Source: an uncultured virus (IMG/VR IMGVR_UViG_3300031227_016742)
Taxonomy: Duplodnaviria; Heunggongvirae; Uroviricota; Caudoviricetes
DNA: 64,000 bases
Reading direction: 5' to 3' (one strand)
Virus record (IMG/VR): IMGVR_UViG_3300031227_016742
The notes under the pieces: generated by a model
The model's input: the letters and a program-made list of their open reading frames with translations, nothing else
What the model was told of the DNA's origin: nothing
The model's database searches: none
Program-made: the position numbers and the translations under genes
Part shown: positions 1,926 to 32,631 of the stretch, piece after piece
Layout of the letters: every line of letters begins with the position of its first letter
Numbering within the stretch: the first letter of the stretch is position 1

Positions 1926-2498
1926 ATGGTCAACTTCGCCGAGATCCTGATGTGCACACCGCACCGTGAAGCGCGGCACAACGTCCTCTGGCGTCTATCC
2001 GGGCCTGTCTCGGCGATCCCCCAGAGGAACAGTCACCGTCACACCGAGCCTGTCTCCGGTGGCCTGTCCATCCAGATCGACATCGACCCGGACGACGGAA
2101 CGGTCAACGGCTGGCTGGTGGACGATGACGATGAGATGGTCGAGGACTCCTACGCCGAGGTCCGAACGATGTCGGCTACACAGCTGCAGCGGCTCTTCCT
2201 CGATGACTACTGCATCGACATCCCTGTGCAAGCCCTGGGCGATCCAGAGGATCGGGTCGGCTTCGTCACAGGGGTGGAGCTCCCCGATGAGCTTCGAGGG
2301 AGCGGCCTGGGGAAGAGGCTGGTGGACGCGGTGTTCTCGAAGTGCATCTCGTCTCTCTCGGCGCAGCGCATGTTTCTCGTCTCGGTCCACGGATCTGTGG
2401 GCTTCTGGGAAAAGATGGGGTTCTCCGAGGTCGAGTGGCCCGGGTTCTATTCCGTCGTTATGCCGCTTATGGTCAAAGGCGGAGAGGTGACGACGTGA
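1926..2498 (+). CDS. GNAT family acetyltransferase
   Basis: LRGSGLGKRLV acetyl-CoA motif and GFWEKMGF. Confidence 0.8.
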   Translation: MVNFAEILMCTPHREARHNVLWRLSGPVSAIPQRNSHRHTEPVSGGLSIQIDIDPDDGTVNGWLVDDDDEMVEDSYAEVRTMSATQLQRLFLDDYCIDIPVQALGDPEDRVGFVTGVELPDELRGSGLGKRLVDAVFSKCISSLSAQRMFLVSVHGSVGFWEKMGFSEVEWPGFYSVVMPLMVKGGEVTT

Positions 2499-4588
2499 CG
2501 AGCACGACCTTCGCGAGCATCCTGGCCTCCGAAAGTTCCCGTCGTGGCGCTCGCGGCGTGCTGCGCGAGCTGCAGGGTCAGCTCGGACAGCTGCGGCGCG
2601 CAGAGCCAGCGAACACCACCGGGTGGCTGAAGTGGATCGCCGAGACCTACGGCTGGCCCACGGCCAGGCTCACGGCCATCCTGCTGTGCTCTTATCCGCT
2701 CGACCCGGGGGTAGGGTTCACTCACCCATACCATCTGATCGGAGTCGCCTCGCCTCTGGCTGATCCCAGGGCTCTCGTGAACGACGAACGCTGGAACCCG
2801 ATGATGCGCTGGATCGGGAGAGAGCTGAACCGAGTGTGGGTCAGATCCCTGCGCATGGCCAAGCAAGGCGAGCTCACCCCTATCGCCAAAAAGTCGATCC
2901 TCGCCATCTCGAGCCCGGTTCTGCAGGTGAGCCAAGACCCGAACATGCTCGTGGGTGAGATGCTCGCTCTGGAGAGGAGGGCTATGGGCCCCCTCCGTGG
3001 AAACCTGTGGCTTCCGGGCGATCCGGGCGACATGGAGACCGAGATAGAGACCGAGTCGTTCCGTGACCTGCCCGAGATCCGCGACTGGCACAACGGGCTC
3101 CTTCCCACGCCGCAGCTGTCAAAGTTCACCATCGACACCGCGGCAGAGGCCGCTGAAGACTGGCACCATGTCCTGGGGGGCATCACCTTGCCGAGAGGTG
3201 CCGTGCGCCGTGGTGAGTTCGTCATGGTGCACCCGGACAGCGACGCGGAGGACGAGGACGGCTTCTGGACCATCCAGCGGCTGACCAGCAGGCACCAGTA
3301 CGAGGACGAGGGCAGCTACATGAGCCACTGTGTCGGCGGCGGTGGGTACTGGAGAGCCCATGAGCAGGGTGACATCGACATCTACTCGGTGCGCAACGAG
3401 AACGGCGATCCAACCATGACCCTCGAGGTGAAGCTCGATGCGGATGGTGAGCCGACCCATATAGTGCAGGTCAAGGGCAAGAACGACGAGACCCCCGTCA
3501 ACATCATCATGACCCAGAGCACCAGGACAGGGGACGACTGGGAGATGGTGCTCTCCGGGGCCAACGCGATCATCGAGCACCTCGAGAAAGAACACGGGGT
3601 AAAGCTCACGCGTGGGTCCGATGCCAATGAGCTGCAGCTGTTCACCGAGGGAGAGGGCTTGGCCAAGGTCATCGCCTCGGGTGACTTCGAGATCAACGAG
3701 GCTATTGGGCAGCAGATCTCCAGCATGATGGGAGAGGGCTACGACCCCGAGATCGTCGAGGCTTGGGCCAAGGCCGTGGAGGCCGGATACACAGAGGTGA
3801 TCGCTCCGGTGATGGCCTGGAACCAGGTCGCCATGTACAAGGACAAGCTGCCCGCCGGGATGCAGAACCTCGAAGACATCGTCTGTTCGGGCTCCGACCG
3901 CATCGACAGGAACGGAGGAAGCGACGAGGTTACCCCCTGGATCTGGCGCTTCGACAAGGTCATCTCCAGCTTCGGCGACGCTGTCCTGAAGGTCAGGGGC
4001 ATCATCGTTGTCGGGTATGCCACCGATGGTGACTACGACACGGACAGCCACTGGTTCTTGCTGGCGGACTCCGAGCTGCGCTTCGAGTCGATGGACGAGT
4101 CTTTCCAGACATCCGAGTACTCCGTGTTCGACGAGCACTACGATCCGGAGTGGCTCATCGGGCGGAAGTCCTACACCGCCTACACCTCCGACCGGGTCTC
4201 CCACTACATCAACTGGGATCCAGACAAGCTGCACCCCCGCTTCCCTGTCCGCAGCTCCCGCTGGAAGGAAGGAGATCGCATCGACCTGCATGACGTGGCG
4301 ATCGATGACTGGGAGGTCAAGTTCTCCGAGGTCGTCAAGAAGCTGAACGAGTGGTACCAGAAAGACTGCCTCTCCGAAGCCATGGAACAGCTCGGTGACT
4401 GGCAGCAGGCGGCTGTACTGGGAGCGTTCCCCAAGATAGACTCCGAGTGGCCGGAGATGTTCTCCGACACCGACACGGTCCTGAAACACAAGACCACCCC
4501 TGGGACCTGGCGCCCGGCTATCCCGGAGGACTGGGTGTCCGAAGAGACCAATCCACAGCGAAAGCTCTTTTTGTGGGACGAAGAATAG
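2495..4588 (+). CDS. PcfJ-like domain protein with N-terminal leader
   Basis: EG..MSHCVG, IYSVR, TLEV and QVKGKND motifs; GTG start overlaps the GNAT stop. Confidence 0.65.
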   Translation: MTSTTFASILASESSRRGARGVLRELQGQLGQLRRAEPANTTGWLKWIAETYGWPTARLTAILLCSYPLDPGVGFTHPYHLIGVASPLADPRALVNDERWNPMMRWIGRELNRVWVRSLRMAKQGELTPIAKKSILAISSPVLQVSQDPNMLVGEMLALERRAMGPLRGNLWLPGDPGDMETEIETESFRDLPEIRDWHNGLLPTPQLSKFTIDTAAEAAEDWHHVLGGITLPRGAVRRGEFVMVHPDSDAEDEDGFWTIQRLTSRHQYEDEGSYMSHCVGGGGYWRAHEQGDIDIYSVRNENGDPTMTLEVKLDADGEPTHIVQVKGKNDETPVNIIMTQSTRTGDDWEMVLSGANAIIEHLEKEHGVKLTRGSDANELQLFTEGEGLAKVIASGDFEINEAIGQQISSMMGEGYDPEIVEAWAKAVEAGYTEVIAPVMAWNQVAMYKDKLPAGMQNLEDIVCSGSDRIDRNGGSDEVTPWIWRFDKVISSFGDAVLKVRGIIVVGYATDGDYDTDSHWFLLADSELRFESMDESFQTSEYSVFDEHYDPEWLIGRKSYTAYTSDRVSHYINWDPDKLHPRFPVRSSRWKEGDRIDLHDVAIDDWEVKFSEVVKKLNEWYQKDCLSEAMEQLGDWQQAAVLGAFPKIDSEWPEMFSDTDTVLKHKTTPGTWRPAIPEDWVSEETNPQRKLFLWDEE

Positions 4589-4648: not shown

Positions 4649-4691
4649 CTGCCGGGACGAGGATCATCGTTTCGACAGAGTGAGCAAGAGG

Positions 4692-4748: not shown

Positions 4749-5327
4749 ATGTCCGAAGAGAGCGCCCCCCTCCCCCAGCCTGTCCTCGACATCCAGCGCA
4801 CCCAGTGGATCGAGCTGACCGGAGCCGACGACAACCGCCCACTGCGGCTCTCGTCGAACTCGATCGTCCGCTCCATCCAGAACGTCTGCGTCTCCGATAG
4901 CGATAGCCGCAGCCGGATCGAGGTGGCGTGGCCCATCTCCATGGGCCTGCTCGATGGCCTCGGTGGCAAGGCTCCGTCCGTCGGCATCTCGACCTACGAG
5001 GTCAAGGAGACGGTCGATGAGGTCATCGCCGCCATCGAGGGTGTCGGCAAGCGGGTCCGCAAGGCACGCCGAGACCTGGCCTGGAACCAGCACATCGCTC
5101 AGCTGCGCGCCGATCTGGCCGGCTACGGTGACGACGAGGAAGAGATCATGCCCGACATCCCGATGCCCTCCGGTTTCAGCCACCAGGGCCGAGCTCGCAT
5201 CCGCAAGATGCACCACAGGCACATGAAGGGCTCACTGAGCGGGATGATGCCCATGGGCCTCGAGCCCAGCTTCACCTTCGGTCCCGACAACGACGACCTG
5301 GACCTGGACCCGGGCGACTGCGGATAG
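4749..5327 (+). CDS. hypothetical protein
   Basis: ORF with GGAG SD and GC3-rich codons, downstream of promoter. Confidence 0.7.
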   Translation: MSEESAPLPQPVLDIQRTQWIELTGADDNRPLRLSSNSIVRSIQNVCVSDSDSRSRIEVAWPISMGLLDGLGGKAPSVGISTYEVKETVDEVIAAIEGVGKRVRKARRDLAWNQHIAQLRADLAGYGDDEEEIMPDIPMPSGFSHQGRARIRKMHHRHMKGSLSGMMPMGLEPSFTFGPDNDDLDLDPGDCG

Positions 5328-5377
5328 CGCTCACGACCGGCGGCTTCGTCTCCTGTTCCACCCGAGAGGATGTTTGG

Positions 5378-5794
5378 ATGTTCACCTTGACCTCACTGAG
5401 TCTCCCGCTCGAGACCGAGCGGCTGGTCCACCATGACGACGGTCCGTACAAGAGCGGTGAATGGATCTACTCGCCGGCAGATCTTCCGTCGCCCAAGAAC
5501 GAGCCTCCGTGGCCGAACATCAAGGCGCTGATCGTCAAGAGCAAGGACGGTGAACCCGTCAGGCTCAGATCGTGCAAGATCGGCGGGGGTGGCGAGCTGG
5601 TGAAGGTGCACGTCGGACTTGGAGCCAGCCATGAACTCCGCGGTCCTCCCTTCGACATCGTGTCCGGGAGAATGTACGTGTTCGAGAGGTTCCCGTTCGT
5701 GGGGGCCCCGAACCAGGCGATCGTGGTGCTCGCTGAGACCGATCGCATCGAGAGCGTCGAGCTGGTGTGCGAGCGACCTCCACCGCTGGATTGA
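5378..5794 (+). CDS. hypothetical protein
   Basis: ORF with GAGG SD. Confidence 0.6.
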   Translation: MFTLTSLSLPLETERLVHHDDGPYKSGEWIYSPADLPSPKNEPPWPNIKALIVKSKDGEPVRLRSCKIGGGGELVKVHVGLGASHELRGPPFDIVSGRMYVFERFPFVGAPNQAIVVLAETDRIESVELVCERPPPLD

Positions 5795-5823
5795 CCACTG
5801 CTCGTCCGTAGATGCTCACAACC

Positions 5824-5894
5824 AGCGAGCAAAGCGAGCTTTCAGAGAGCGGTAAGCGGTGAGCGGTGATCGGTAAGTGGCGAGCGCAGCTCGC
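5824..5894 (-). repeat. Heptamer-repeat/mini-hairpin element
   Basis: (AGCGGTR)n flanked by GCGAGC motifs and GCGAGC-GCA-GCTCGC hairpin. Confidence 0.85.
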
Positions 5895-6574
5895 TACACA
5901 AACGCGGGTCCGACATGCGACCTCGCCGGCATCAGTCCCTGTTCCCTAAGCGAGACGTAGCTCCCAGGCGTCACTACGATGTGATCGAGGAGCTCGACAC
6001 CGAGCGTCTTGCCCGCGTCCGTGCACCGCTGCGTCACCTCCACGTCCGAAGAGCTCGCCTCGGGCCTGCCGCTGGGGTGATTGTGGAACAGGATGACGGA
6101 GGAGGCTCCCAGGGCGATGGCGGGCCGGAAGACCTGCCTGGGATCGACGATGGTGTGAGCATCGTTGCCCTGGGTCAGGGTGCGCCTTCCGAGGACGTGA
6201 TGAGCTCGGTTCAAGTACAACGCGACCAGGGTTTCGTAGTTCTCGAGCCCCATCGCTCTGACATGTGCAACGGCCTCTTCAGCGCTGACGATCGTATCGT
6301 TCGCGGACAGCTTGCGGGTCGCCATGCGTCGGTACAGCTCACCGGCCGCCACCAGGCGGGCGTAGGCCGCTCCCTGGACGCCTGCTCCCTGGGCCACACC
6401 CAGGTTGTCGATGAGGGTCAGCCTCCCACCAGCCTCCATCAGCAGCCTCTCTGCGACCTCTCTGGGGGAGGCAGAGCCGGTGGATCCCGACAACAGCACG
6501 GACAGTAGATCCACGTCCGATGCGTCGTGGGGGTCGATGATGAACAGTCGTTTGTACAGCGGTAGGCTGGCCAT
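5894..6574 (-). CDS. radC: RadC family JAB/MPN domain protein
   Basis: SDVDLLSVLL N-terminus; VDPRQVF; HNHPSG..AS.SD; LLDHIVV. Confidence 0.92.
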   Translation of the reverse strand: MASLPLYKRLFIIDPHDASDVDLLSVLLSGSTGSASPREVAERLLMEAGGRLTLIDNLGVAQGAGVQGAAYARLVAAGELYRRMATRKLSANDTIVSAEEAVAHVRAMGLENYETLVALYLNRAHHVLGRRTLTQGNDAHTIVDPRQVFRPAIALGASSVILFHNHPSGRPEASSSDVEVTQRCTDAGKTLGVELLDHIVVTPGSYVSLREQGLMPARSHVGPAFV

Positions 6575-6749: not shown

Positions 6750-7186
6750 TACCATTCCAGCAGGTCCACCCCCCGCCGGCTCGCCTTGACCTGGCTGCGG
6801 CGTTTCTTCCCCTTGGCGCGCTGCTGCCCAACGGCAGGCCTTGGCGCAGCCTTCTCACGGGGTGGGTCGGGATGCAGGCAGGCCTTGACGATGTCGCACA
6901 GCCGCTGCCTCACGATCTGCTCGTTCCTGGACACGAGGCGACGTTTTTCGTGCATCAGCACCAGCTGACCACGCACGTTGACGTGGGATCGATAACGCTG
7001 TCGGATGCGAGCCTTGACGTCCTCCGAGACGGAGTCGTCAGCCGACATGTCCCAGTGCAGTCGGACCTTGGTCTTGTTGTGGTCCCGGTGCATCCCCCCG
7101 CTGCCGCTGGAGATTGCATAAGACCAGGCCAGGTGCCGGGTGGGGATGACGATCGTCTCGTCGATACGGATAGGTCCGCGGGCCAT
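6749..7186 (-). CDS. arfB: ArfB/YaeJ-like ribosome rescue factor homologue with GGM in place of GGQ
   Basis: SSGSGGMH..KV.L.W; G.LVL; R....RN; basic C-terminal tail KKRRSQVKASRR. Confidence 0.85.
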   Translation of the reverse strand: MARGPIRIDETIVIPTRHLAWSYAISSGSGGMHRDHNKTKVRLHWDMSADDSVSEDVKARIRQRYRSHVNVRGQLVLMHEKRRLVSRNEQIVRQRLCDIVKACLHPDPPREKAAPRPAVGQQRAKGKKRRSQVKASRRGVDLLEW

Positions 7187-7189
7187 GAT

Positions 7190-7256
7190 GTCTCCTGGTG
7201 AGGAGACCCTGCGCCTCCTCGGTTTATGTCGGGGTGAGGAGCGTGCGCAATCTCAT
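7190..7256 (-). promoter_or_regulatory. Putative translational attenuator with leader peptide MRLRTLLTPT (7224-7256)
   Basis: SD hidden in GTCTCCT-CACC-AGGAGAC hairpin; alternative pairings with GAGGAGGCGCA and the uORF segment. Confidence 0.65.
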
Positions 7257-7290
7257 GCGTGTCCGTTGCTCTCGCCAGGGGCGAGGTTGT

Positions 7291-7333
7291 GGGCTGATGG
7301 GCTGTTGGCTGTTGGCCGTGAGCGCAGCGAGCC
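7291..7333 (-). repeat. Heptamer-repeat element (GGCTGTT)n
   Basis: GGCTGATG-GGCTGTT-GGCTGTT-GGCCGTG plus GAGCGCAGCGAGC. Confidence 0.7.
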
Positions 7334-7429
7334 ATGGTGGTGGAGGCCCGGACCAGCAAAGGATTATGCCGGCCCGGACCCGAATAGGCTCCATCAGCAT
7401 AGCCACACAGGTATCGTGAGTCAAGAAGT

Positions 7430-7458
7430 TTGCCACCACCAGTAGAGATGGTTACCTT
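7430..7458 (+). promoter_or_regulatory. Promoter/operator upstream of tRNA
   Basis: TTGCCA-17-TACCTT; TGCCAC-CACCA-GTAGAG. Confidence 0.65.
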
Positions 7459-7469
7459 CTGTCGGGTAA

Positions 7470-7547
7470 GGGCTGATGGCCGAGTGGTCCAAGGCAGAAG
7501 GCTTTCAATCCTGAAGTGCGTGGGTTCGAATCCCACTCAGCCCTCCA
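7470..7547 (+). tRNA. Atypical tRNA (anticodon TTC/Glu or ambiguous TTCA loop; U73 discriminator)
   Basis: GGGCTGA/TCAGCCC acceptor stem, D-arm GCC..GGC, GTGGG-TTCGAAT-CCCAC T-arm, encoded CCA; anticodon stem poorly paired. Confidence 0.8.
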
Positions 7548-7623
7548 GATCCCCACTCAGCTCTCTATTTTTCGAACGACTCTTCCGTCGTTCCCACTCT
7601 GCGTCCGAGTCCAAAGAGCAAGA

Positions 7624-8148
7624 ATGATCCGTCCACACACGTACACCCCAGAAGAGCGACGCCACTTCGGCAGGCTGAAGGCCATGGGCGTCACCCTGCA
7701 GCCCGGTATGCATGTGCTGGACCTGCTCTACCCTCACCCGGACGAAGGCGGGGGCTCCCCTTGTGATCACATCGTCCTCACGACCTATATCGGGGGAGAC
7801 GGTTGCCACACGGGCCGGGAGAATGGGAGGGGCGGATCCTCGACGGTCACAGGCTACTACGTCCCAAAGCTGGCCCACCTCGAGACCTTCTGCGCCTGCC
7901 TGGCCGTCGCTGTCGCCCGTGGGGTCGAGTCCTTCCCCGTGAAGGGCTACAAGCACCGATACAAAGAGGTCGGAGGGCCAGGGGTCAAGGCGCTCCCCTA
8001 CTTCGACGATGACCAGTACCACGTGAACTACCTGGTCGGGGTCATCAAGCTGTGGCGGATGCCCGAGTGGAAAGAGCAAGTGATCGAGGGCCTCACCGAG
8101 GTGCTCATCCGCACCGCACCCAAAGACGAAGAGAGGACCGAGCCATGA
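7624..8148 (+). CDS. hypothetical protein
   Basis: ORF, start of coupled operon. Confidence 0.65.
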   Translation: MIRPHTYTPEERRHFGRLKAMGVTLQPGMHVLDLLYPHPDEGGGSPCDHIVLTTYIGGDGCHTGRENGRGGSSTVTGYYVPKLAHLETFCACLAVAVARGVESFPVKGYKHRYKEVGGPGVKALPYFDDDQYHVNYLVGVIKLWRMPEWKEQVIEGLTEVLIRTAPKDEERTEP

Positions 8149-8702
8149 ACGAACAGGTCAGCAACCACACGATGAAGCTTCTGCACATGCTGCCCTACGA
8201 GGTCGGTCAGACGCTGGCCAACAACACCGAGTACCCCACCGGCTGGCTGGTGGATAACAACGGAAAGGCCGTGGCCCGCTTCGAAGGCATGGCTGTCACC
8301 ATGCACGGGGACATCCGCATCCTGCCGGTGGACATCATGACCATCCTGGACGTCGCCGTGGGCATCGTGAACGACCAGCAGAAGACCACCACCGCGGCAT
8401 GGGAAGCCGAGAGCTACATCTTCGAGATTCTCTGGGGAAGTGACGCTGTCGGCCTGCGAAATGGAAAGCTGAAAGAACTGGAGCCGAGTGGAAGCATCAT
8501 GCAGACCACCGTCGGAGCCCAGCACTTCCCCTCGAAGGAAGACATGCGCCGCTGGATGGCCCTGTCCTTGCTGGCCCAGGCCTGTGGACTCGAGATCGCC
8601 GCACCGAACACCTGTTGGCGCTGCGGTGACACCCCCGAGCTCATCCCTGGCTACGGCTACACCTGTCCGTGCCGGCCGGGACCCGATACTCTCGAGGGAT
8701 GA
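8145..8702 (+). CDS. hypothetical protein with C-terminal CxxC...CxC
   Basis: ATGA overlap, GAGG SD. Confidence 0.7.
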   Translation: MNEQVSNHTMKLLHMLPYEVGQTLANNTEYPTGWLVDNNGKAVARFEGMAVTMHGDIRILPVDIMTILDVAVGIVNDQQKTTTAAWEAESYIFEILWGSDAVGLRNGKLKELEPSGSIMQTTVGAQHFPSKEDMRRWMALSLLAQACGLEIAAPNTCWRCGDTPELIPGYGYTCPCRPGPDTLEG

Positions 8703-8980
8703 ACCTCCAAGCCCCGCATCCGCAACTGAGCGTCCAGGCCTCCGTCATCGAAGAGTTCCTCGTGGTCATCGCCGCCTACATCAACGTCTGCCACAGGCGC
8801 GGCTTCGAGCCGAAGCTGTCACGGGAGGACTTGGACGACATCGTCCGCTTCTGTGATCTGTACCCGGGCGGCTGGCAGCGAGCGATCGAGGTGGCCTTCT
8901 CCCGTGTCGGCAACTCCTGCGCGGGCGCCAGGGACCAGATGGTGGCGCGCTACGCCCAAGGGCGCGGCGCTATGGCTTGA
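8699..8980 (+). CDS. hypothetical protein, PGG-motif paralogue 1
   Basis: DIVRFCDLYPGGWQRAI..AF. Confidence 0.7.
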   Translation: MNLQAPHPQLSVQASVIEEFLVVIAAYINVCHRRGFEPKLSREDLDDIVRFCDLYPGGWQRAIEVAFSRVGNSCAGARDQMVARYAQGRGAMA

Positions 8981-8993
8981 CTCCGAGGACAGC

Positions 8994-9257: not shown

Positions 9258-9295
9258 TGGCTCCGTGATATCATGGATCTCGACAGGAGAACCCC

Positions 9296-9670: not shown

Positions 9671-9680
9671 TGTCGATGGC

Positions 9681-9709
9681 TTGACGCTGCCACCAGGAGT
9701 GGCTACTCT
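9681..9709 (+). promoter_or_regulatory. Promoter with operator in the spacer
   Basis: TTGACG-17-TACTCT; TGCCAC-CAGGA-GTGGCT. Confidence 0.7.
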
Positions 9710-9715
9710 CTTCTT

Positions 9716-11861: not shown

Positions 11862-12403
11862 TGGGCTACCTCGTCACCATTGTTCATGGCAACGGCTACT
11901 ACTGCTCCTGCTGCGGCACCACCTACGAGAACACCCACCGGCAGGACGAGCTCGAATACGCGCTGTCTCACCTGCCCACCATCGTGCGCCTGACCGAGGA
12001 CGATCCCATCGAGGACGAACACGGTGAGGACGCCATGGATCTGAGCGGAGACGATCCTTTCGATCTGCACGATCTACGTAAGGTGGAGATCGAGGATGCG
12101 GCCACTGGAGACGCCGTCGCCTGGGGCCGCATGAGCAGCACGCCTCACGACAGGAGGGTCGCCGGGCCGTCCTACCACCGCTGGAGCGGCTGGGGACGGG
12201 ATGGGCTCTTCGAGGTCATCTGGGCCAGCGGAAACGAGCGCATCACCGATCGTAGCTGGGATCAGCTGTACCACGAGGTGGAGGTCCACCAGGCCGAGGC
12301 TGTGCTATCGATGAAGGAGCGAGAGCTCGAGCGCAAGCAGGGTGAGGTCAGCGCCGCCAAGGGGCATCTCGAGACGGTCAAGGCCAAGGTGGTGGGCAGC
12401 TAA
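11861..12403 (+). CDS. hypothetical protein (CSCC motif, C-terminal coiled coil)
   Basis: TAATG coupling; GNGYYCSCCG. Confidence 0.7.
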   Translation: MGYLVTIVHGNGYYCSCCGTTYENTHRQDELEYALSHLPTIVRLTEDDPIEDEHGEDAMDLSGDDPFDLHDLRKVEIEDAATGDAVAWGRMSSTPHDRRVAGPSYHRWSGWGRDGLFEVIWASGNERITDRSWDQLYHEVEVHQAEAVLSMKERELERKQGEVSAAKGHLETVKAKVVGS

Positions 12404-12426
12404 TCCGAAGGCCCGCCTGGGGACGC

Positions 12427-12655
12427 CTATGGGCCCCGGGTGAATCCGCGTAGCAGGGTTCGGGTCACGTCGTCCAGGGCCTGGGCGACGTCTGTCGTTG
12501 TCTCTCTCGGGGTCCAGTAGTGGAAGACGTCTCCGGGGTCGTACTCTTCGCGGCGTGGTTGGAAGTGCTCGTTCTTTCAGCTCGCCAAGCACACCCCGGG
12601 GCCCACGGTGGGAGACCTCGGCGGCGACGGTGGTGGTGAGCAGGGTATCGAGCAT
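12427..12655 (-). pseudogene. Small leader-family protein with apparent single-base frameshift near 12575-12577
   Basis: Leader MLDTLLTTTVAAEVSHRGPRGVLGEL; codon usage shifts frame after CTG-AAA-G. Confidence 0.45.
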
Positions 12656-13980
12656 CAGCCCATCCGCTCGCCAGAGACGTGACCAAACCCGTGCAGCAGC
12701 TGGTGGATGGCGAGGACGGTCTCTCGGTGGGCGTCATCGTCCAGCTCTTTGATCTTTCGGACAGCGGTCCCAATCTGGCGTGCCTCGTATTCGTTCATGA
12801 TGAAGGCTCGCTCGAACTTCGCCGGGCTCGTCAGCCAGATCTCTCCGGTGACACGCCCATCGGGGAGCAGGGTGTCTGCAGGACAGATAGCCGTGACAGT
12901 CTCCGTGTTGGTGTACATCACCCAGACCGAAGGGCTCCAGCCGATATGACGGGACATCAGCTCTTCGCCCACCGCCGTGACCGTGCCTCTGTGCGTGAAG
13001 GTGCCACCGTCCGGATCGATGGCGTACATGGCCAGCTCTGGGCTCGGCCCACAGCACACTCGGGGGATGGTCCTGTCCTCCCCGAACAGCGTGGACTTCA
13101 TCCGACGCGGTTCGAAGGTGATGCTCTGCGGAGGTTCGACGTCCTGGTCGTCCGAGCTCTTGGGCTCCACGCTCACCTGGATCATGCGCCACAGGGTTCC
13201 TGGGGCAGCCTCGAAGGTCTCGCTCTCGGTCCTCCATGGTCCACGCAGCTCTGGTTCGATCCCCTTGTCGCGCAGCTGGGCGAACATTTGATCGAAGGAC
13301 GTCCCGAGCACGTCGACGTCCAGCAGCCCCAGTATCTCACCGCCAGCCCAGCACAGCGCCGCGAAGCTCATGCAGCCCTCACCCAGGATCGATGAGTCCT
13401 CTGGGCCGAAGTGGTTCTCGATGGCCTCGAGCGCCATCCAGTTGTCGAAGCAGATGGACAGCTCGAACTCCGGGTTCATCAGCGGAACCCAGCCGTCACG
13501 AGTCCAGACCTCGATGAGCTCGGGCTCGATGACCCTTTCGGTGTAAAACCCGGTGCGGGTGAAGATGTCACGCTTCTTTCCCAACAGGACACCGTCACTG
13601 CGAGGATCTTCTTCCGTGTCGTCTGGCCACGGGAAGCGCAACAGAACATCGTTCCAGGACAACGCGAAGCTGGGAGCAGGGCAAAAGTAGACCCCTGTCG
13701 GTTGCTGGAGGAACGGTTCCGGCTCCATGGGCGAGAGCCCATACAGGGCGATGGACGGCAAGTCGGTGTAGCGGGTGGCGTGGTAGGCGCAGGGACGATC
13801 CTTTTCTGGTCCACAGCTGTCGTCGAGCTCGCGCGTCAGTGGTGGGGGCGGAACCCTCGAGACACCTTTCTCGATCCCCAGTGCGTCCTTCAGTCGCTGC
13901 TGGACAGCCTGGTTCCTGGTGTCGCTGAACCACTTCGACACACCGGCAAGGATGATGGTGGTGAGAGGGATCAGGGGCAT
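12655..13980 (-). CDS. Leader plus two ADP-ribosyltransferase-like domains
   Basis: YHAT...LPSI...GL.P...GVYF; second domain LWR...FEPR...GEDRTIPRVC...PDG..TGEIWL. Confidence 0.55.
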   Translation of the reverse strand: MPLIPLTTIILAGVSKWFSDTRNQAVQQRLKDALGIEKGVSRVPPPPLTRELDDSCGPEKDRPCAYHATRYTDLPSIALYGLSPMEPEPFLQQPTGVYFCPAPSFALSWNDVLLRFPWPDDTEEDPRSDGVLLGKKRDIFTRTGFYTERVIEPELIEVWTRDGWVPLMNPEFELSICFDNWMALEAIENHFGPEDSSILGEGCMSFAALCWAGGEILGLLDVDVLGTSFDQMFAQLRDKGIEPELRGPWRTESETFEAAPGTLWRMIQVSVEPKSSDDQDVEPPQSITFEPRRMKSTLFGEDRTIPRVCCGPSPELAMYAIDPDGGTFTHRGTVTAVGEELMSRHIGWSPSVWVMYTNTETVTAICPADTLLPDGRVTGEIWLTSPAKFERAFIMNEYEARQIGTAVRKIKELDDDAHRETVLAIHQLLHGFGHVSGERMG

Positions 13981-13989
13981 GCGCCAGAC

Positions 13990-14727
13990 CTATGCGTTCG
14001 CTCTGACCATGGTCGACGGCAGCGTGGCGACCCTCAGGTCGGATCCGTTCTTGTACCAGCGCTCTCCCCGCTTGATGGCCTCGACGCGGTAGCCGTCTCT
14101 GACGCTGGAGTGGACCTTGAACATGTCACCGCCCTTTCCCATCCAGACCAGGTAGTGGTGGCCGCTATCCGGCCCCTCTGGTTTGGGCACGACCTCGTCT
14201 CCGGCCCGGTCCCATGACTGCACGAAGTGCCAGCGTTCGGGGGTCAGCGCGGGGGCTGCGTGCTGGATACCAACCTTGCGTTTCACCAGAGAGGACACCC
14301 CGTCGATGAAGTCGCTCAGGGCCGGGATGTTGTCCCACGGCCTGGAATGGTCTGTCAGGTTGATGCGGTCCCACAGCTCTGGATTCAGGTTGCGCCAGGC
14401 GTTGAAGTCCGTCCAATCCCTTCGGTCTCGGGGGCTCTCGCCAGACAACGCGATGGCCCATGCCGCCACCATGTGTGAGCACGGCCTGTTCTCGCTGGTG
14501 ATGAACGCCATGATGGGGCTGTGCTCATTCTGTAGCAGGTCCCAGCCGAGGTCCAGCAGCTCACCTTGCGAATCGGGCCTACGCAACCCTGTGGGATAGG
14601 GGGGCTCTCTCTTCGGAGGCTCCGGCCGCGCCGGGGCTGGCTGGGGGGACGAACCGCCACCACCGGCCATAGCCAGAGCGGCCAGGCCACCGAGGGCTAC
14701 GACTGCGACGATCGCCTTGCTGTCCAT
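13990..14727 (-). CDS. Membrane-anchored Cys-His peptidase-like protein
   Basis: N-terminal TM plus Gly/Pro linker; PCSHMV, HFVQ.W and GHHYLVW parallel 910-1821. Confidence 0.55.
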   Translation of the reverse strand: MDSKAIVAVVALGGLAALAMAGGGGSSPQPAPARPEPPKREPPYPTGLRRPDSQGELLDLGWDLLQNEHSPIMAFITSENRPCSHMVAAWAIALSGESPRDRRDWTDFNAWRNLNPELWDRINLTDHSRPWDNIPALSDFIDGVSSLVKRKVGIQHAAPALTPERWHFVQSWDRAGDEVVPKPEGPDSGHHYLVWMGKGGDMFKVHSSVRDGYRVEAIKRGERWYKNGSDLRVATLPSTMVRANA

Positions 14728-14910: not shown

Positions 14911-15387
14911 ATGCCCGTCCTTTCGCTGCTGATCGTCTCCACCATCCTGGCCAGCCCCCCTGGCGACTTCCGCGGCATCCCCTTCGGGGCGCAGTGCTCG
15001 ACCCAGCGCGACTTCGCGCCCTACGCCGTCGAACACCGCGACACCCCTGTCGAGATCCAGGTCTACAGCCAGGACGGGGACCTGCTGAAGATGGGCATGA
15101 CGCCGGTGCGCACCATCAGCTACTGCTGCTGGCGCGATCGGCTCATCCGGGTCCACGTCGAGCTGGACAGATCCGCTGCCCCGATGCTGCACGCCTACCT
15201 GTCCGCCCAGTGGGGAGTGCCCATGCACATGACCGGGGGCAACGAGTACGGCTGGCTCTCACCGGGAACGATGGCGACCATGAGCTGGTCGGATCCGACG
15301 CTCCCCGCGGTGCTCGGGATCTTCGATCAGGCGCTGGTGGCGGAGTTCACCGACGTGATGATCCAGCAGCCGGTCACGGGGAACTGA
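14911..15387 (+). CDS. secreted hypothetical protein
   Basis: Hydrophobic N-terminus then DFRGIPFG. Confidence 0.6.
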   Translation: MPVLSLLIVSTILASPPGDFRGIPFGAQCSTQRDFAPYAVEHRDTPVEIQVYSQDGDLLKMGMTPVRTISYCCWRDRLIRVHVELDRSAAPMLHAYLSAQWGVPMHMTGGNEYGWLSPGTMATMSWSDPTLPAVLGIFDQALVAEFTDVMIQQPVTGN

Positions 15388-16627
15388 TCTTCTTCTTGTT
15401 CCACCTGTTCAGCTTGCCTGGCAGGATGCCGCCACGCGGTGCTGACCACTCCCCTTCGTCGTCCTGCCACCAGACCCCATCCAGCCCGAGCTTCTTGGCC
15501 CAGGCGAGGGCCGCCATGTCCAGCGCCAGGGCCAGCTCTACGGTCTCTCCTATCAGCCTGTCCAGCGTCCTGGTGGCGATGTGCCCGTCGAAGGGCTCCA
15601 CCGTCCCCTCGTTGAACTCCGCCTCTTCTTCGGCGTCTTCGGGGTAGTGGTGGATGGAGCTGACCTCTTCCTCTTCCTCGGAGTCCCACGAGGTGACCCG
15701 GTACAGGGTCATCGGCTCGAGCAGGCTGTTTTCCTCGCCCCAAGCGGCGATATCGGCGTCATCGAGCTGGTGACGGTCCAGGAAACGCCCACCGTCGTTG
15801 TTGTGCAGCTCCCACAGGGGCCAGCCGCCAAGCTTGGCGATGCGGCGCCAGTCATCGATGTGATCCTCATCGGTCACAGACAGAGTGTGGCCCTCCAGGC
15901 TCCGGCCCCGATTGTACTTGTCTTTGGGGTCCATGCTCCCGATGTGGTAGACGGTGTCGATGTTCCGGACCGGAGCCACGAGTCCCGCGGTGGGCGGCGG
16001 TGGCCCCTCGAGCGCGTAGTTCTTCCGGTCCAGCGTCAGCCGGCGCACGACGAAGTTTTGACCATCAGGCGCGCTGTAGTCGCGCTCCATGAGCGCCCCC
16101 AGCAGCATGTGCGGCGTGAAGTGCCTGGCCCGCCAGCTGGGCACGAAGACCGGCACGGGGACCAGCACATCGGGGCCGCACAGCTCCCGGACCACCGTCA
16201 TGCGATGTCGTCCCTCGTGGCCGACTATCTGGAAGCGCACCGGGCCGCCCTCGGAGCGGAGGCCCTGGTCGGACTCCCACCTGGCGTGCACGATGTTGGC
16301 GTCCAGCCATGGGGGTGCGATGGCGCGGCCCTCTCTGACCTGCTGCATGATCCAGTCGTAGTTCTTGTCTTTGCCTCTGAGCGGCTCGTTGAGCGCCAGG
16401 TACTCGTCCGGCGTCATCCAGGCCACGAACCCCAGGTAGTTGACGTTGCGGTTGATGGAGACGGCCCCGATGCCGCGCTGGCCGAAGACGACCGGCCCGA
16501 TACGGAAGGGCTGCTCTGGGTCGTACTCCACGCCCAGACGGTGAGCGAGCACCGATCCCTCGTCCTCTTCCTGGTCTCCGGAGAGGATGGCGGCCGCGAC
16601 GGCGATGAGGGGGAGGAGGATGGACAT
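15374..16627 (-). CDS. Leader plus ParB-like domain plus ART-like domain
   Basis: MSILLPLI leader; GHEGRHRM (ParB-type G.HR); VYHIG...LEG..LSVT. Confidence 0.55.
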   Translation of the reverse strand: MSILLPLIAVAAAILSGDQEEDEGSVLAHRLGVEYDPEQPFRIGPVVFGQRGIGAVSINRNVNYLGFVAWMTPDEYLALNEPLRGKDKNYDWIMQQVREGRAIAPPWLDANIVHARWESDQGLRSEGGPVRFQIVGHEGRHRMTVVRELCGPDVLVPVPVFVPSWRARHFTPHMLLGALMERDYSAPDGQNFVVRRLTLDRKNYALEGPPPPTAGLVAPVRNIDTVYHIGSMDPKDKYNRGRSLEGHTLSVTDEDHIDDWRRIAKLGGWPLWELHNNDGGRFLDRHQLDDADIAAWGEENSLLEPMTLYRVTSWDSEEEEEVSSIHHYPEDAEEEAEFNEGTVEPFDGHIATRTLDRLIGETVELALALDMAALAWAKKLGLDGVWWQDDEGEWSAPRGGILPGKLNRWNKKKISSP

Positions 16628-16629: not shown

Positions 16630-17184
16630 CTACTCTTCTATTCCGGATCCATAGTCGAACAGGCGCAGCTCTCCTCCATGGCATCCCCAGTTCGTGAAGA
16701 GCTCGGCATCCAGAACGCGCAGAGGGAAGTCGTCGATCTCCCTGGTGAGGCCTTCCTCGTCCGTGCATGCCCACGGCGAGCTCACACGCTCCATCACGAG
16801 GATCATTCCGTCGAGATGAACACTCACGACAGGCATGAGCGCTGGGATCTCGCCCTGATGGTCGAACCAGATCTGATCTTCTACCAGGTTGACCAGGCCT
16901 CGATAACGATCGATCTTGGCCACCCTGCCGTCTTCCAGGTCGATCACCGTACGGTGTGCGCCGGATCCGATCACGTCGAAGCCCACCCTGATGAGCATCG
17001 GCTCGAGCTGTTCTTCGGGAAGCCGTTTCCCCTCGAACGGCCTGATCAGTTCGATCAGTCTCTCGAGCACGGTCTTTGTGGGACGCACGCCCAAGCGGGG
17101 AGCGATCACCGATCCCTCGTCCTCTTCCTGTTCTCCGGAGAGGACGGCGGCTGCGACGGTGATGAGGGGAAGGAGGATGGACAT
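16630..17184 (-). CDS. Leader plus minimal protein-kinase-like domain
   Basis: IGSGAHRTV, VAKI, LVMERV, D....NWG, LFDYG. Confidence 0.65.
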   Translation of the reverse strand: MSILLPLITVAAAVLSGEQEEDEGSVIAPRLGVRPTKTVLERLIELIRPFEGKRLPEEQLEPMLIRVGFDVIGSGAHRTVIDLEDGRVAKIDRYRGLVNLVEDQIWFDHQGEIPALMPVVSVHLDGMILVMERVSSPWACTDEEGLTREIDDFPLRVLDAELFTNWGCHGGELRLFDYGSGIEE

Positions 17185-20738: not shown

Positions 20739-21617
20739 ATGATCCTGCTCTTGGCCCCCCTCACCATCGTCTTCTCCCTGCTGAGCGAGCGGGAGCGTAT
20801 CGACGCTGTCGAGACGGTGGACAAGTCCTTGTCCGATGCCCTGTTCGGGCCCCCGGCCCACCGGGCTCTCGTTCTGATGGACGAGGACGCCGCGATTTCA
20901 TCGTGGTGGAGCCCTTCGATCTGGGACGAACAACCGGCAACGAAGCTGTCTCCCGGCTGGAGCGATGAGCTTCGAGCCTACCTGCGGGACATCGACCTCC
21001 CAGAAGGGTGGAAGTCACTGCTGACCAGGATGTGCGACCAGGCCCATAAACACGGTGGGGCTTGCCGCTACCACGACCCGGTCGAGACGATCCATCCACA
21101 CCGTCTGATGTACGAGTCTCTCGCTGACTTGGAAGACGCTTCCGATCGGGACACGTGGGCAGAGCTCGAGCCGTCCAGACGCATGTTCGTTCGGGCCACC
21201 TCCTTGCTCGAGCGCTTCGTTCCAGGTATTCGTTTTCATGGTGGTGCGGGAACCAGTCACATGAAGACCTGGTGGTCGGCACAGGAGGGTCTGACCCTCG
21301 AGTCGAGGAAAGATCCGTTCCTGGAGAGTTTCCCGTTCCCCGTCTGGACCGACGGAGAGTACGTGCTTGTCATGGAGCCTTGGATGGGGGAGTGTCTGGA
21401 GCTTAGGCCCGAGCTGGACGAGGCCTGCAGCGTGGCTTGGAATGCCAAGGATCTACGCGAGGTCGTTCGCGTCATGCTGGCCGAGGCACGCACTCGCGAA
21501 GAAGAAAAAGGCCTGAACAGGCCCATCGCAGAGCTCTGGATCCCGACTTGTTCGAGCGCGGATCACATCTTCCTACAGATCTCCGTCTACCGAGTGCCGT
21601 CACATGCCATCCGTTGA
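20739..21617 (+). CDS. hypothetical protein with hydrophobic leader
   Basis: MILLLAPLTIVFSLLS; TAGGAT 6 nt upstream of ATG. Confidence 0.65.
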   Translation: MILLLAPLTIVFSLLSERERIDAVETVDKSLSDALFGPPAHRALVLMDEDAAISSWWSPSIWDEQPATKLSPGWSDELRAYLRDIDLPEGWKSLLTRMCDQAHKHGGACRYHDPVETIHPHRLMYESLADLEDASDRDTWAELEPSRRMFVRATSLLERFVPGIRFHGGAGTSHMKTWWSAQEGLTLESRKDPFLESFPFPVWTDGEYVLVMEPWMGECLELRPELDEACSVAWNAKDLREVVRVMLAEARTREEEKGLNRPIAELWIPTCSSADHIFLQISVYRVPSHAIR

Positions 21618-22260
21618 CCGCTTCACCGTCTCCCCCCAGGAAGTCCGTGGCAAGATCGAGACCGCCCTGGACGGAGCCATCACCATCGCCAGGACCTACG
21701 GTGAGCAGTTCGAGCAGGCCGCCAAGCGCTATGAGCTCGACCCTCTCTACCTCATCGCCATCGCCGCGGTGGAGACCTCTGGGCTCGACAAGTGGATCTC
21801 GGGACCCGGAACGAGCGCCGTTGGCGCTGCCGGAATCGGCCAGTTCATGCCCTCCACTTGGAGCGAGATCTCCGCCAAGGTGTATGGCTCCGCCCTCCCC
21901 CAGCAGGACCGCTTCGACCCGGACAAGGCCATCCCCGTGCTCGCTCGCTACGTGCACGACCTGCTGTCCCTGTCGTGGGTAGACACGCTGACCGAGGCGG
22001 CCGCGGCCTACAACTGGGGCATGGGCAACGTGAGGAAGCTCAAGGACGGGCGCCTGTCGGCCATGCCCGCCGAGACCGCCCGCTACGTGCCCACCGTGAT
22101 GGGGGTCTACACCGACCTGGAGACCATGGCACAGGGTCAGCACGGATCCGCTGGGGTCGGCCCACGGCCCGAAAGCGGTGGAGGCGGTGGGGGTGGTGTC
22201 GCCATCCTGGCGCTGCTGGGCCTGGGAGCCGCGGCGGCTATCCTGAAGCGGCCACGGTAG
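21604..22260 (+). CDS. Lytic transglycosylase (SLT) with C-terminal membrane anchor
   Basis: IAAVETSG, GAAGIGQFMPST, AAAYNWG, ETARYV; Gly run plus TM plus KRPR. Confidence 0.9.
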   Translation: MPSVDRFTVSPQEVRGKIETALDGAITIARTYGEQFEQAAKRYELDPLYLIAIAAVETSGLDKWISGPGTSAVGAAGIGQFMPSTWSEISAKVYGSALPQQDRFDPDKAIPVLARYVHDLLSLSWVDTLTEAAAAYNWGMGNVRKLKDGRLSAMPAETARYVPTVMGVYTDLETMAQGQHGSAGVGPRPESGGGGGGGVAILALLGLGAAAAILKRPR

Positions 22261-30628: not shown

Positions 30629-30639
30629 TTCGAGTGTCA

Positions 30640-32631
30640 TCATCTCGGATCCTCCACCCGGTCGAGGTCCTCGTCGTAGAACGACACAGACAATAGCGCA
30701 GCTTCGGGCACGGTGATCTCCGGTTCACGGTCTGTCAGAGACCCCGAGGTCACCGTGTCGGGATCGAAGCGATACCTTAGCAGGACGTTCATCTCGTGCC
30801 CAGCGTAGTGGTCGAGGCAATACTCGGCGCTGGGCGCCAAGAAGATTCCGGGACCCGGCATCCTGTGCAACGATCCGGGCTCGATGGCGAGGTCTATCCT
30901 CGAGTTGGCCCCAGAGACGACACGTCCAGACTCTGGATCGAAGCGCATGACCTTGTAGCCGACCAGGCCATCTCCATCGTGTTCCCAGTGCCAGAGACGT
31001 TCGAACGGATCTGGCCACTCTGTCTCTGGTTCGTCTCCACCGAGGGCCTCGGAGACCAGATCGCGGCCGTAGTCGGAGAACCATCCGAGCGCCATCTCGT
31101 CGTTCCCGCCGAACAACCTACCTGGCCTGCTGTCCGCAGAGCTTTGGTTCCACCAAAACGGCTCCTCGAGGCCCTCATGGCGCTGACGGATGCGGTGCAT
31201 GAAGATCGACAACCTGTCATGGGCCTGCTCGTCCCTGATGGATCCGTTGCCCGGTCCCTGGACGTCCTCTGTCGGTAGCGTTGGATCGACCCGGGCCTCC
31301 CAGGTTGCTTGGCTGCGTCCCGTGGGGTCCCTGTAGGAGAAGACGCGGACCTTTCCTTCCCGCAGCAGTCTGGGGTGGCCCCAGCGCTCGGTCCCGATGC
31401 AGTGGTTCATCCCTCTCCCCTCATGTCTCATCCCGAGGGTCGTGAGAACTTCGACGATCGACGCCCCGTCGGAGAAGGCACGCAGCGTGGTGAAGTCCTC
31501 GCCGAGCTCGGCATCCTCGATGTCTTCCTCTTCGTCTTCTCTCTCATCCTCGAGGAAGGCCTCTTGGTGGGTGGCCACCGCGTGGTTGATCAGCGCATGG
31601 ATCGGGCTCTGGAACCTCTGGGCCTCCATCATGGCGTCAGGACGAGCCCGCAGGTGGTCCCGGATCATCGAGATGGCCTGTCTCATGGGCTGCGCCATCA
31701 TCACGACCCTCTCGATCCACAGCGCAGTCATCAGCCGCAGCTTGTCGCGGACGACGAGCATGGCCTCCGAGTCCGAGTCGAGGTTATTGTCCATGGAGTC
31801 GAACCAGAGCAGCTCGTCTACCAGGCTCCGCCAATCTCCAGAGTTTTCCAGGCGCGCAATCCTTCCATCGAGAGCCCTCGACCCGGGCCCGCTCACTTCC
31901 GCCAGGAAGACGGCATAGGACAGGTCCGTGATGAAGGCGCTTCCGTCGGTGATGGAGATCAGGACGGACAGCGGCCCATCCGCTGTCTCGACCTCGAAGG
32001 TCTCGGTGAGAAGCGGGCTCTTCTCTCCGACCTCCCAGACCACGGTCGCTATCTTCCGAAGACGTCCGTCATCATCGGACAAGTCGGCGTGCAGCTGACG
32101 GTACCACCCGGGAGCATTACGGTACGCGGCCGAGATCCCGACCATATCCCAAGGGGCGTTGAACACGTCCTCGTAGCTCTGCTCCCATGCTGCTTCGTAC
32201 AGCTCGTCCGGGGCCAGGTCGACCCCGAGATCTTCGATGTCGCCGTAGGTCCGACCCGTCACGGTCTCGTGCATGTTGAAGTCCCACAGGTCTTCGGCAT
32301 ACGGGATGCCGTGCTCGGTGGCCATCTTCGCGAACCAGACCATCAACCGACCGATCTCGGGCCGGTCACCGAGGACGTTCCACATCTGATGCTCTGGGCC
32401 TGCCAGCAGGTTCCGTGTTGTGCGCTCGAAGATGTAGTCCAGCCACCCCATCACGTCGTCTGGGATGTTCTGGGTCTCGAGCCAGTCCCAACGACGCTGC
32501 AGCAGGCTGCGGGTGTCCACCGCGACCACCGGCGCCAGCTGTAGGCGCCCCTGCAGGTGCTGCAGTGTCCCGCGCCGGGTGTCGGCACTGGGAGAGCACA
32601 GCAGGACTGATGAGAGGGGCACGGCAATCAT
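30640..32631 (-). CDS. Leader plus PcfJ-like domain plus C-terminal ART-like domain
   Basis: EGRGMNHCIG, VFSYRD, ATWE, VQGPGN; C-terminal VGYKVM...GIFLA...EPE. Confidence 0.6.
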   Translation of the reverse strand: MIAVPLSSVLLCSPSADTRRGTLQHLQGRLQLAPVVAVDTRSLLQRRWDWLETQNIPDDVMGWLDYIFERTTRNLLAGPEHQMWNVLGDRPEIGRLMVWFAKMATEHGIPYAEDLWDFNMHETVTGRTYGDIEDLGVDLAPDELYEAAWEQSYEDVFNAPWDMVGISAAYRNAPGWYRQLHADLSDDDGRLRKIATVVWEVGEKSPLLTETFEVETADGPLSVLISITDGSAFITDLSYAVFLAEVSGPGSRALDGRIARLENSGDWRSLVDELLWFDSMDNNLDSDSEAMLVVRDKLRLMTALWIERVVMMAQPMRQAISMIRDHLRARPDAMMEAQRFQSPIHALINHAVATHQEAFLEDEREDEEEDIEDAELGEDFTTLRAFSDGASIVEVLTTLGMRHEGRGMNHCIGTERWGHPRLLREGKVRVFSYRDPTGRSQATWEARVDPTLPTEDVQGPGNGSIRDEQAHDRLSIFMHRIRQRHEGLEEPFWWNQSSADSRPGRLFGGNDEMALGWFSDYGRDLVSEALGGDEPETEWPDPFERLWHWEHDGDGLVGYKVMRFDPESGRVVSGANSRIDLAIEPGSLHRMPGPGIFLAPSAEYCLDHYAGHEMNVLLRYRFDPDTVTSGSLTDREPEITVPEAALLSVSFYDEDLDRVEDPR

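Follow-up and report, generated by a model that had tools for sequence, protein, structure and literature searches.

Why do genes for different enzymes, lying within one stretch of viral DNA, begin with related N-terminal leaders? The question is raised by a 64,000-nucleotide stretch (the window) of the uncultured virus IMGVR_UViG_3300031227_016742 in IMG/VR, which is part of a 385,225-bp contig and has a G+C content of 62-65% along its whole length. Seven genes are concerned, which we designate A to G and which start at positions 2495 (A, plus strand), 12655 (B, minus), 13980 (C, minus), 16627 (D, minus), 17184 (E, minus), 20739 (F, plus) and 32631 (G, minus). An initial annotation had read related leaders on unrelated enzymatic payloads, and proposed a single modular tag that loads these enzymes into the virion. 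All seven N-termini translate as quoted there; the start of A was corrected from ATG to GTG, and B, C, D, E and G were placed on the minus strand.

Discrete, transferable N-terminal modules are indeed present, and there are at least two kinds of them. Family L1 is found on A, B and G, where it heads two different PcfJ-type families and a small third gene, and family L2 on D and E. Judged by their sequences, these are two unrelated leader families, accompanied by two lone hydrophobic N-termini, those of C and F. One leader common to all seven genes had to be rejected, as the L1 profile does not recover the members of L2, nor the L2 profile those of L1. The most likely function of L1 and L2 is that of address tags, which would bring different enzymes to one destination.

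Two leader families and two lone N-termini

The existence of L2 as a leader family of the adjacent genes D (15374-16627, minus strand) and E (16630-17184, minus strand) is solid. The leader occupies 33 codons in each gene (16529..16627 in D and 17086..17184 in E, both on the minus strand) and is made up of a hydrophobic helix, an acidic linker and a short second helix in D; in E it was recognized by the D-family profile and by its identity with D. Twenty-eight of the 33 residues are identical (BLASTP E-value 6.5e-13), and the remainders of the two proteins are not alike. At the DNA level the match sets in 2 nt upstream of the ATG and breaks off abruptly after codon 33; 9 of the 99 leader nucleotides differ, amounting by hand reading to about 4 silent changes and about 5 conservative replacements. 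A profile built from three D-family leaders matches E at an E-value of 1.3e-19 and does not match C, F or G. Both leaders are strongly hydrophobic, the Kyte-Doolittle (KD) 13-mer value of L2 being 2.35-2.96, and the hydrophobic part is followed by 5-6 acidic and 0-1 basic residues.

Orthologs of D from marine metagenomes (P0002 and P0003; loci L001-L003), which have 57-60% identity to it, retain the L2 leader. Within the D family the leader is 64-79% identical, compared with 57-58% in the rest of the protein. No second copy of L2 was found beside the orthologs, either within 10 kb upstream in L002 or in L001. In the case of E, phmmer returned 22 homologs of the payload, the alignments of which begin at query residue 25-70. 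The leaders also appear detached from the predicted folds. In the AlphaFold model of D, the predicted local distance difference test (pLDDT) stays below 40 across residues 1-62, a region in which residues 4-15 and 23-30 are helical, and in that of E, residues 1-33 have values of 51-59 and no secondary structure; the payloads flanking these leaders score 83-98.

L1 is an equally solid family. It covers about 32 codons in A (2495..2590, plus strand), where a GGAG-type ribosome-binding site lies upstream, positions 12560..12655 (minus strand) in B, and 34 codons in G (32530..32631, minus strand), the latter being its most hydrophobic copy. A 34-column profile was built from G and three foreign orthologs only and was searched against the 1,149 six-frame open reading frames (ORFs) of the window. 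It matches A at an E-value of 1.1e-5 (residues 5-31) and B at 2.1e-4 (residues 2-29), the next-best match standing at 0.011. With G left out, its leader is recovered at 6.5e-6. A longer G-family profile of 75 columns aligns to A across the leader only. The L1 profile also matches the A orthologs P0035 (E-value 2e-8) and P0034 (2.8e-7), and its matches to A, B and these two orthologs all begin at residue 2-7. Compared directly by BLASTP, B and A are 48% identical over 27 amino acids (E-value 0.005).

Three orthologs of G (P0007-P0009; 32-43% identity) retain the L1 leader, with R20, L23, L26 and L30 invariant, and identity within this family is 34-39% in the leader versus 32-43% elsewhere. L1 is polar, with a maximum KD 13-mer of 0.40-2.04 (0.66 in A and 1.05 in B). 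Between the GTG of A and the stop codon of the GNAT gene that precedes it there is an overlap of 4 nt, and the ATG of B overlaps the stop codon of C by 1 nt. The N-terminus of that GNAT protein (1926, plus strand) resembles L1 by eye and was considered as a further member. It was rejected, since the G-family leader profile did not find it; its Smith-Waterman score against G (50) equals the maximum of the shuffled null.

B itself has the appearance of a small gene with a leader that has undergone a frameshift or decay, or else of an assembly error. The rest of its open frame (12305..12559, minus strand) does not resemble coding DNA, the G+C fractions at the second and third codon positions being 0.79 and 0.56 versus approximately 0.45 and 0.80 in real genes. 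The frame ceases to look coding about 27 codons in, so that B has no clear payload, and a coding-like stretch of 49 codons lies one base out of frame.

The claim of related leaders therefore holds beyond chance for D with E and for A with B and G, and is not supported for C and F, which leave-one-out profiles do not recover (E-values 5.2 and 120). Gene C (12655..13980, minus strand; 441 amino acids) has its hydrophobic N-terminus at residues 1-15 (KD 13-mer 2.05) and gene F (20739..21617, plus strand; 292 amino acids) at residues 1-16 (2.59). Their layout resembles that of the leaders, with a first helix, a polar linker, and a second, short helix that finishes in L-x-G or the like. What C, D, E, F and G have in common is 15-17 uncharged hydrophobic residues from the Met, an internal P-L and a closing Ser. 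The pattern of P-L, 7-8 residues and S near the N-terminus occurs in these five and in no others of 89 proteins; it is circular, having been derived from the same five sequences. The idea that the leaders represent the N-terminal motif of RadC/UPF0758 was also rejected, as eight 70-residue N-termini gave no Pfam match at E-values up to 10; the RadC protein of the window itself reaches only 0.093 for UPF0758_N.

In L002, the pair of genes lying upstream of the D ortholog, one for a 733-residue protein (7795-9996, plus strand) and one for a C-like protein (approximately 6900-7749, plus strand), encode proteins that open with some 15 hydrophobic residues and then a charged linker; their sequences are unlike L2. 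Between C and D in the window lies a gene (13990..14727, minus strand) the product of which has a longer hydrophobic N-terminus, rich in Ala, Gly and Leu, and a Pro-rich linker (KD 13-mer 2.68; best 19-mer 2.18 at residue 5). No family match for it was found in Pfam, PHROGs or NCBIfam.

The enzymes behind the leaders

The payloads can be described as solo forms of domains known from polyvalent proteins, namely ADP-ribosyltransferase (ART)-like, truncated kinase, PcfJ, GNAT and possibly ParB/Srx domains. The initial annotation had recognized domain types of phage polyvalent proteins here, and this holds: the D domain occurs inside such proteins, and E resembles the truncated kinases described for them (PMC5512222). 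The payloads had further been thought unrelated to one another. This is true of D and E by BLASTP, not of A and G, which share a PcfJ-type core.

The payload of D (15374..16528, minus strand) consists of a first domain at approximately residues 64-200 and a second at 216-417. The second is modeled as an ART-type fold and is best called ART-like. With VIA-align its highest scores are to MbcT (Z 7.2), a RES toxin (6.8) and the catalytic domain of diphtheria toxin (6.6), and the nine best rows are all toxins of the ART superfamily (Z 5.2-7.2 over 114-133 residues, root-mean-square deviation 3.9-4.6 A). H228, E245 and S250 hardly vary across the family of this domain. The D model as a whole has no Foldseek match at an E-value of 1e-3 or less and no Pfam match, and the VIA-align Z scores of the second domain stay below 8. 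The first domain was labeled ParB-like in the initial annotation, which agrees only weakly with the model: residues 58-208 or thereabouts align with Osa (Z 4.6), SerK (3.9) and sulfiredoxin (3.6), and neither this domain nor its relatives in metagenome-assembled genomes match Pfam, even at an E-value of 0.1. The stretch G-H-E-G-R-H-R is invariant in three sequences of the domain, which is possibly, albeit weakly, ParB/Srx-like.

The C-terminal domain of D represents a widespread family: metagenome contigs yielded 90 relatives, and 80 loci were retained. The domain occurs as proteins of about 210 residues and within proteins of up to 3,232 residues, the large ones also holding ART-PolyVal, PARP, NUDIX, GNAT, ParB_N and SET domains. 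The D orthologs (P0002 and P0003; 2638-4278 in L001) are about 130 residues longer at the C-terminus than D, and in this extension a second stretch looks ParB-like by eye.

The payload of E (16630..17085, minus strand) is about 146 residues in length and is modeled, with a pLDDT of 88, as a truncated protein-kinase-like domain, in which the N-lobe and the catalytic core are kept, with Gly loop, Lys and Asp, while the C-terminal subdomain is missing. The kinase label given to it earlier is well founded: there are 18 Foldseek matches at an E-value of 1e-3 or less, and all 50 rows listed are kinase-like (RIO, APH and eukaryotic-type). Its size fits that of the truncated kinases reported from polyvalent proteins (PMC5512222). 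The 23 sequences of the family show no variation at G75, R78, K90, E102, G167, D177 and Y178, and next to none at G73, N165 and W166. Searching PDB sequences and Pfam with the family profile gave nothing significant, the best match being the SteC kinase (E-value 0.59).

The PcfJ label is secure for A and weak for G. The payload of A (2591..4588, plus strand; the whole protein has 697 residues) matches Pfam PcfJ at 3e-9, with 37.3 bits against a cut-off of 25; four foreign homologs of A carry precomputed PF14284 matches, two of which, P0034 and P0035, span 92-100% of A. The payload of G (30640..32529, minus strand; the whole protein has 663 residues) reaches only 1.4e-3 and 18.9 bits, which is under the cut-off. 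Its core at approximately residues 353-461 matches the PcfJ region of A by BLASTP (E-value 2.7e-4), from which it follows that the payloads of A and G are not unrelated. Similarity between these two proteins is limited to the leader and this core, with nothing between.

Two ART-like domains had been proposed for C; an Atlas search returned an Arr-type ART (0.86), which we treat as a lead only. The C-terminal half of C has a relative adjoining the D ortholog in L002 (tblastn E-value 4.5e-31); C also matches phrog_5043 (3.3e-8). The payload of F has no match among the families searched or in the Atlas.

Probable address tags and their possible destination

The reading of L1 and L2 as address tags is the most economical one because the boundaries of the modules are sharp, the leaders are conserved in foreign proteins, they are detached from the folds, and their similarity is concerted within one genome. 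Foreign orthologs at 32-58% identity keep the leaders about as well as the payloads, which indicates that the leaders are under selection. The best reading of the address itself is the assembling virion. We give this somewhat less than an even chance, on the grounds of analogy and of the type of payload. A detachable leader of about 30 residues would then direct an enzyme to the virion during assembly, and the enzymes so loaded would reach the next host together with the DNA, in the manner of the capsid targeting sequences (CTS) of T4 and P1. Enzyme domains that are strung together in polyvalent proteins elsewhere are here encoded as separate genes, several of which bear a leader.

In phage T4, diverse internal proteins and Alt are reported to share only the CTS (PMC3012670, PMC8442874, PMC5694885). 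Much like L1 and L2, the CTS of IPI-III and Alt is a short N-terminal peptide that lies outside the fold on diverse proteins, one of them an ADP-ribosyltransferase, and the cargo genes are described as changing fast (PMC3012670, PMC5694885, PMC8442874). One peptide on otherwise unrelated proteins of the same phage is what is found here too, with L2 on D and E and L1 on A, B and G. The leaders differ from the CTS in having approximately 30 residues rather than 10, in falling into two unrelated families, in being strongly hydrophobic in one class, and in lacking both T4-like starts and a consistent (L/I)-x-E cut site.

Two further systems bear comparison. The first 30 residues of DarB of phage P1 suffice for the loading of a reporter into the capsid (PMC9024508); this signal, too, is an N-terminal one of about 30 residues, carried by a large anti-restriction enzyme, and the same source describes no consensus between it and other Dar proteins. 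The P1 signal is not common to the cargo proteins, unlike L1 and L2, each of which stands on two or three genes. In the giant phages SPN3US and phiKZ, paralogous head proteins have identical N-terminal residues, and the propeptides are thought to target the prohead (PMC5694885). Those propeptides end at A/S-x-E sites of the prohead protease and many exceed 100 residues; no such site is conserved in our leaders, and D and E, which share theirs, are not paralogs.

The nature of the payloads points in the same direction. It has been argued that phage-encoded polyvalent proteins are likely packaged in the capsid (PMC5512222), and their repertoire of ART-type, truncated kinase, GNAT and ParB-like domains recurs here (Iyer et al. 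2017, PMC5512222). The difference is that we find separate genes, each with a leader, instead of a single long chain of domains. Neither "signal peptide" nor "transmembrane" appears in the main text of that paper, and among the papers listed by our searches of the literature on packaging signals of ejected proteins and on polyvalent proteins, none described leaders of this kind.

A parallel was met in low-GC marine loci, 42 of which were fetched with the D domain. These are phage DNA, with genes for DNA polymerase, baseplate hub-lysozyme, a tail protein and an RNA ligase of the kind involved in T4 tail-fibre attachment. Forty-one of 411 distinct ORFs in them start with a T4-CTS-like M-[KR]-x-x-E-[IF], compared with 20 of 2,555 internal Met positions and 5 of 855 starts in high-GC loci. 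The proteins so marked include those with the D domain plus mostly unrelated neighbors (for example those starting at 9779, 11347 and 12261 in L016, at 7236, 9569, 11721 and 12902 in L033, and at 9136, 9956 and 10634 in L069); across four of these loci, the tagged neighbors were otherwise related in a single pair. The payload family of D thus belongs elsewhere to a gene set that shares a short leader.

A number of points weigh against address tags, or against the virion as the address. Each leader is found on only two or three genes, compared with ten or more in T4-type cargo sets, and L1 and L2 are dissimilar. T4-CTS-like starts of the M-[KR]-x(1-3)-[EDQ]-[IFLV] type are found in none of the 170 window ORFs, and no consistent (L/I)-x-E or (S/A/G)-x-E site was seen by eye across the leaders and their orthologs. 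When protein E was compared by phmmer with 1.84 billion cluster representatives, the L2 leader was found on D alone (E-value 1.9e-5), and among 68 distinct N-termini of proteins with the C-terminal domain of D, an L2-type start was seen by eye in the D ortholog of L001 alone. L1 on A and G could simply be the PcfJ family's own N-terminus. Genes for a capsid, portal, scaffold, head protease or terminase were not recognizable among the 88 window genes with Pfam and PHROGs. The source of the window is taken to be a giant phage-like element, and this identity is unproven because the evidence for a phage consists of weak PHROG and tblastn matches and two tRNAs. Lastly, hydrophobic N-termini are not confined to the leaders: 10 of the 22 foreign homologs of the E payload (P0011-P0032) have one of their own, and the neighbors g18 and g28 look membrane-bound, with longer hydrophobic N-termini.

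The last points lead to a serious, though unlikely, alternative, namely that the hydrophobic class (L2, C, F and in part G) consists of membrane anchors, of weak or uncleaved signal segments, or of elements like those of the signal-arrest-release (SAR) type, which would tether the enzymes to the inner membrane of the host or let them go from it, and that L1 is something else. Five proteins, C, D, E, F and G, have a hydrophobic core of the Sec type (KD 13-mer 2.0-3.0), in the form of 13-17 hydrophobic residues at the N-terminus with a small residue at the close; this is a Ser at residue 15-16, which could be the -1 residue. The hydrophobic N-termini of the ten kinase homologs are rich in Ala, Gly and Leu and are mostly followed by Arg or Lys, with net positive charge in eight, which is the usual look of an anchor. 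These homologs keep the hydrophobicity and not the sequence, as anchors would be expected to, and several fit a transmembrane anchor better than the window leaders do. One of them (P0014) has an L2-resembling start (7 bits only) on a protein with a different domain plus the kinase. To this may be added the g18 and g28 neighbors, a lytic transglycosylase (SLT) gene that overlaps F, an SLT-like frame after a D ortholog, and a signal-peptidase-like gene nearby. Were the leaders anchors, the inner membrane would be the site of kinase and ART-type effectors.

Several features of the leaders speak against this alternative. As the initial annotation had noted, they have no basic n-region: not one Lys or Arg precedes the uncharged run in A to G, nor in nine of ten foreign leaders, the tenth (P0009) having one. 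No such region can be hidden upstream where no other possible start lies between the upstream stop and the leader Met, as in C, F, G and the D orthologs of L001 and L002. The uncharged runs of C to G comprise 15-17 residues and those of A and B 9-12, the standard for an anchor being approximately 19 or more apolar residues. The window leaders thus have neither the apolar length nor the basic flank of a single-pass transmembrane anchor, and even the longest runs, of 17 residues with an internal proline, are short for a stable transmembrane helix. L2 continues with its 5-6 acidic residues, and D and E, like the D orthologs, also conserve the acidic linker and second helix, for which an anchor would have no need. 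L1 of A and B is not hydrophobic and has no Sec-type core. The kinase-like and ART-like payloads would, judging from their folds, be expected to use cytoplasmic ATP and NAD.

It is improbable that the leaders have no part in sorting, being by-products of local duplication, of gene conversion or of recombination at the conserved 5'-ends of genes, comparable to cassette exchange in polymorphic toxin loci, or in the case of L1 a native element of the PcfJ family. The leaders of D and E are 85% alike compared with 64-79% for D and its orthologs, and the two genes are adjacent, which suggests recent copying. The PcfJ core common to A and G, the decayed appearance of B and the small number of genes per leader are also in keeping with this explanation, as are the cassette-like small ORFs described beside polyvalent genes (PMC5512222). 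Set against it are the retention of both leaders by foreign orthologs, the restriction of A-G similarity to the leader and the PcfJ core, and the form of the D/E module, which begins at the start codon and not upstream and in which the 9 differences are split, by the hand reading, almost evenly between silent and conservative changes.

It is very improbable that the leaders are tags for an address other than the capsid, be it transfer with DNA by a conjugative or other secretion apparatus, as of a megaplasmid, or docking to a phage-made compartment or complex; in either case a nearby Ser-Lys peptidase might remove the leader. Known signals of type IV secretion systems (T4SS) are C-terminal. 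A T4SS ATPase, a coupling protein and a relaxase were not found in the window with Pfam, the best tblastn matches of a 501-residue neighbor are jumbo phages, and the element has two tRNAs and matches to several PHROG families. In favor of this reading are the occurrence of PcfJ, RadC, SLT and ParB-like modules in conjugative elements too, the plasmid location of approximately 40% of polyvalent proteins (PMC5512222), the want of recognizable head genes in the window and the S24/S26-like gene two genes upstream of G.

Going beyond address tags as such, leader-tagging might be this lineage's alternative to the polyvalent protein. With effectors kept as separate genes, recombination at the leader would allow single ones to be gained, lost or exchanged, L1 (polar) and L2 (hydrophobic-acidic) would serve two docking sites or loading steps, a Ser-Lys peptidase would trim them, and the N-termini of the foreign kinases would be the same device. 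We consider this combination a long shot.

If L1 and L2 are loading tags, they would mark proteins of an uncultured giant phage which travel with the DNA into the host, in a way that can be read from sequence alone, and the marked set would be the proteins most likely to act first against host defences. Capsid-address peptides would then extend well beyond T4 and P1, in forms (30 residues, hydrophobic-acidic) that present searches would classify as signal peptides. With one leader on two unrelated enzymes, D and E amount to a swap experiment made by nature and supply a ready test construct.

Neighboring genes and the nature of the element

Eighty-eight genes were called in the window using codon-position G+C, the majority of these having no family match in Pfam or PHROGs. 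The Pfam matches comprise GNAT, PcfJ, RadC, a YifB/ComM-type ATPase, SLT, a beta-clamp, a helix-turn-helix protein, FHA and RtcB, and the PHROGs matches are largely to families of unknown function. Tail and conjugation genes, like those of the head, were not recognizable in the window. There are two tRNA genes, tRNA-Glu (UUC) at 7470-7547 on the plus strand and tRNA-Arg (CCU) at 36398-36478 on the minus strand. The jumbo-phage matches of the 501-residue neighbor, its top tblastn matches among GenBank phages, are at 25-27% identity. Among GenBank phages, no DNA nearly identical to the window was found, nor any tblastn match to the payloads of D or E; searches of IMG/VR gave no close relatives of A, of D, of the 501-residue neighbor or of the G family.

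The GNAT acetyltransferase gene (1926..2498, plus strand; Pfam Acetyltransf_1 E-value 1.6e-6) lies just upstream of A. The SLT gene that overlaps the end of F is located at 21604..22260 on the plus strand (Pfam SLT E-value 7.2e-16), and its PHROG matches are to a lytic tail protein, an endolysin and an internal virion protein. The SLT-like frame after the D ortholog is an ORF at the 3'-end of L001 and was recognized by eye.

The S24/S26-type (Ser-Lys clan) peptidase-like gene mentioned above is found at 33175..33549 on the minus strand and encodes a product of 124 residues with neither a helix-turn-helix nor a membrane segment. All of its matches are below curated cut-offs: Pfam Peptidase_S24 (E-value 2.3e-4) and S26 (1.7e-3), and NCBIfam signal peptidase I (1.7e-5) and nickel superoxide dismutase maturation protease (2e-5). 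To regard it as a candidate leader peptidase is speculation only. A complex prediction of this protein with residues 1-45 of G, run with no controls, scored 0.00 and says nothing either way.

Some minor observations may be added. In the 57.6-kb locus L002, a gene 4 kb from the D ortholog (4755-5960, minus strand) matches the type I-G CRISPR Cas7g/Csb1 model above the cut-off (E-value 1.8e-13). The first ORF of the window (1-810, plus strand) has basic residues, a hydrophobic run and a Cys at its N-terminus, and is lipoprotein-like by eye and unlike the leaders. The adjacent genes at 58220-58687 and 58688-58990, both on the minus strand, contain a short similar stretch near their called starts, with a Smith-Waterman score of 54, equal to that of A versus B; this may be a repeated upstream element or the result of miscalled starts. 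Lastly, in the protein predicted from 44443-44913 (minus strand), a segment of about 17 residues close to the N-terminus is duplicated exactly and in tandem.

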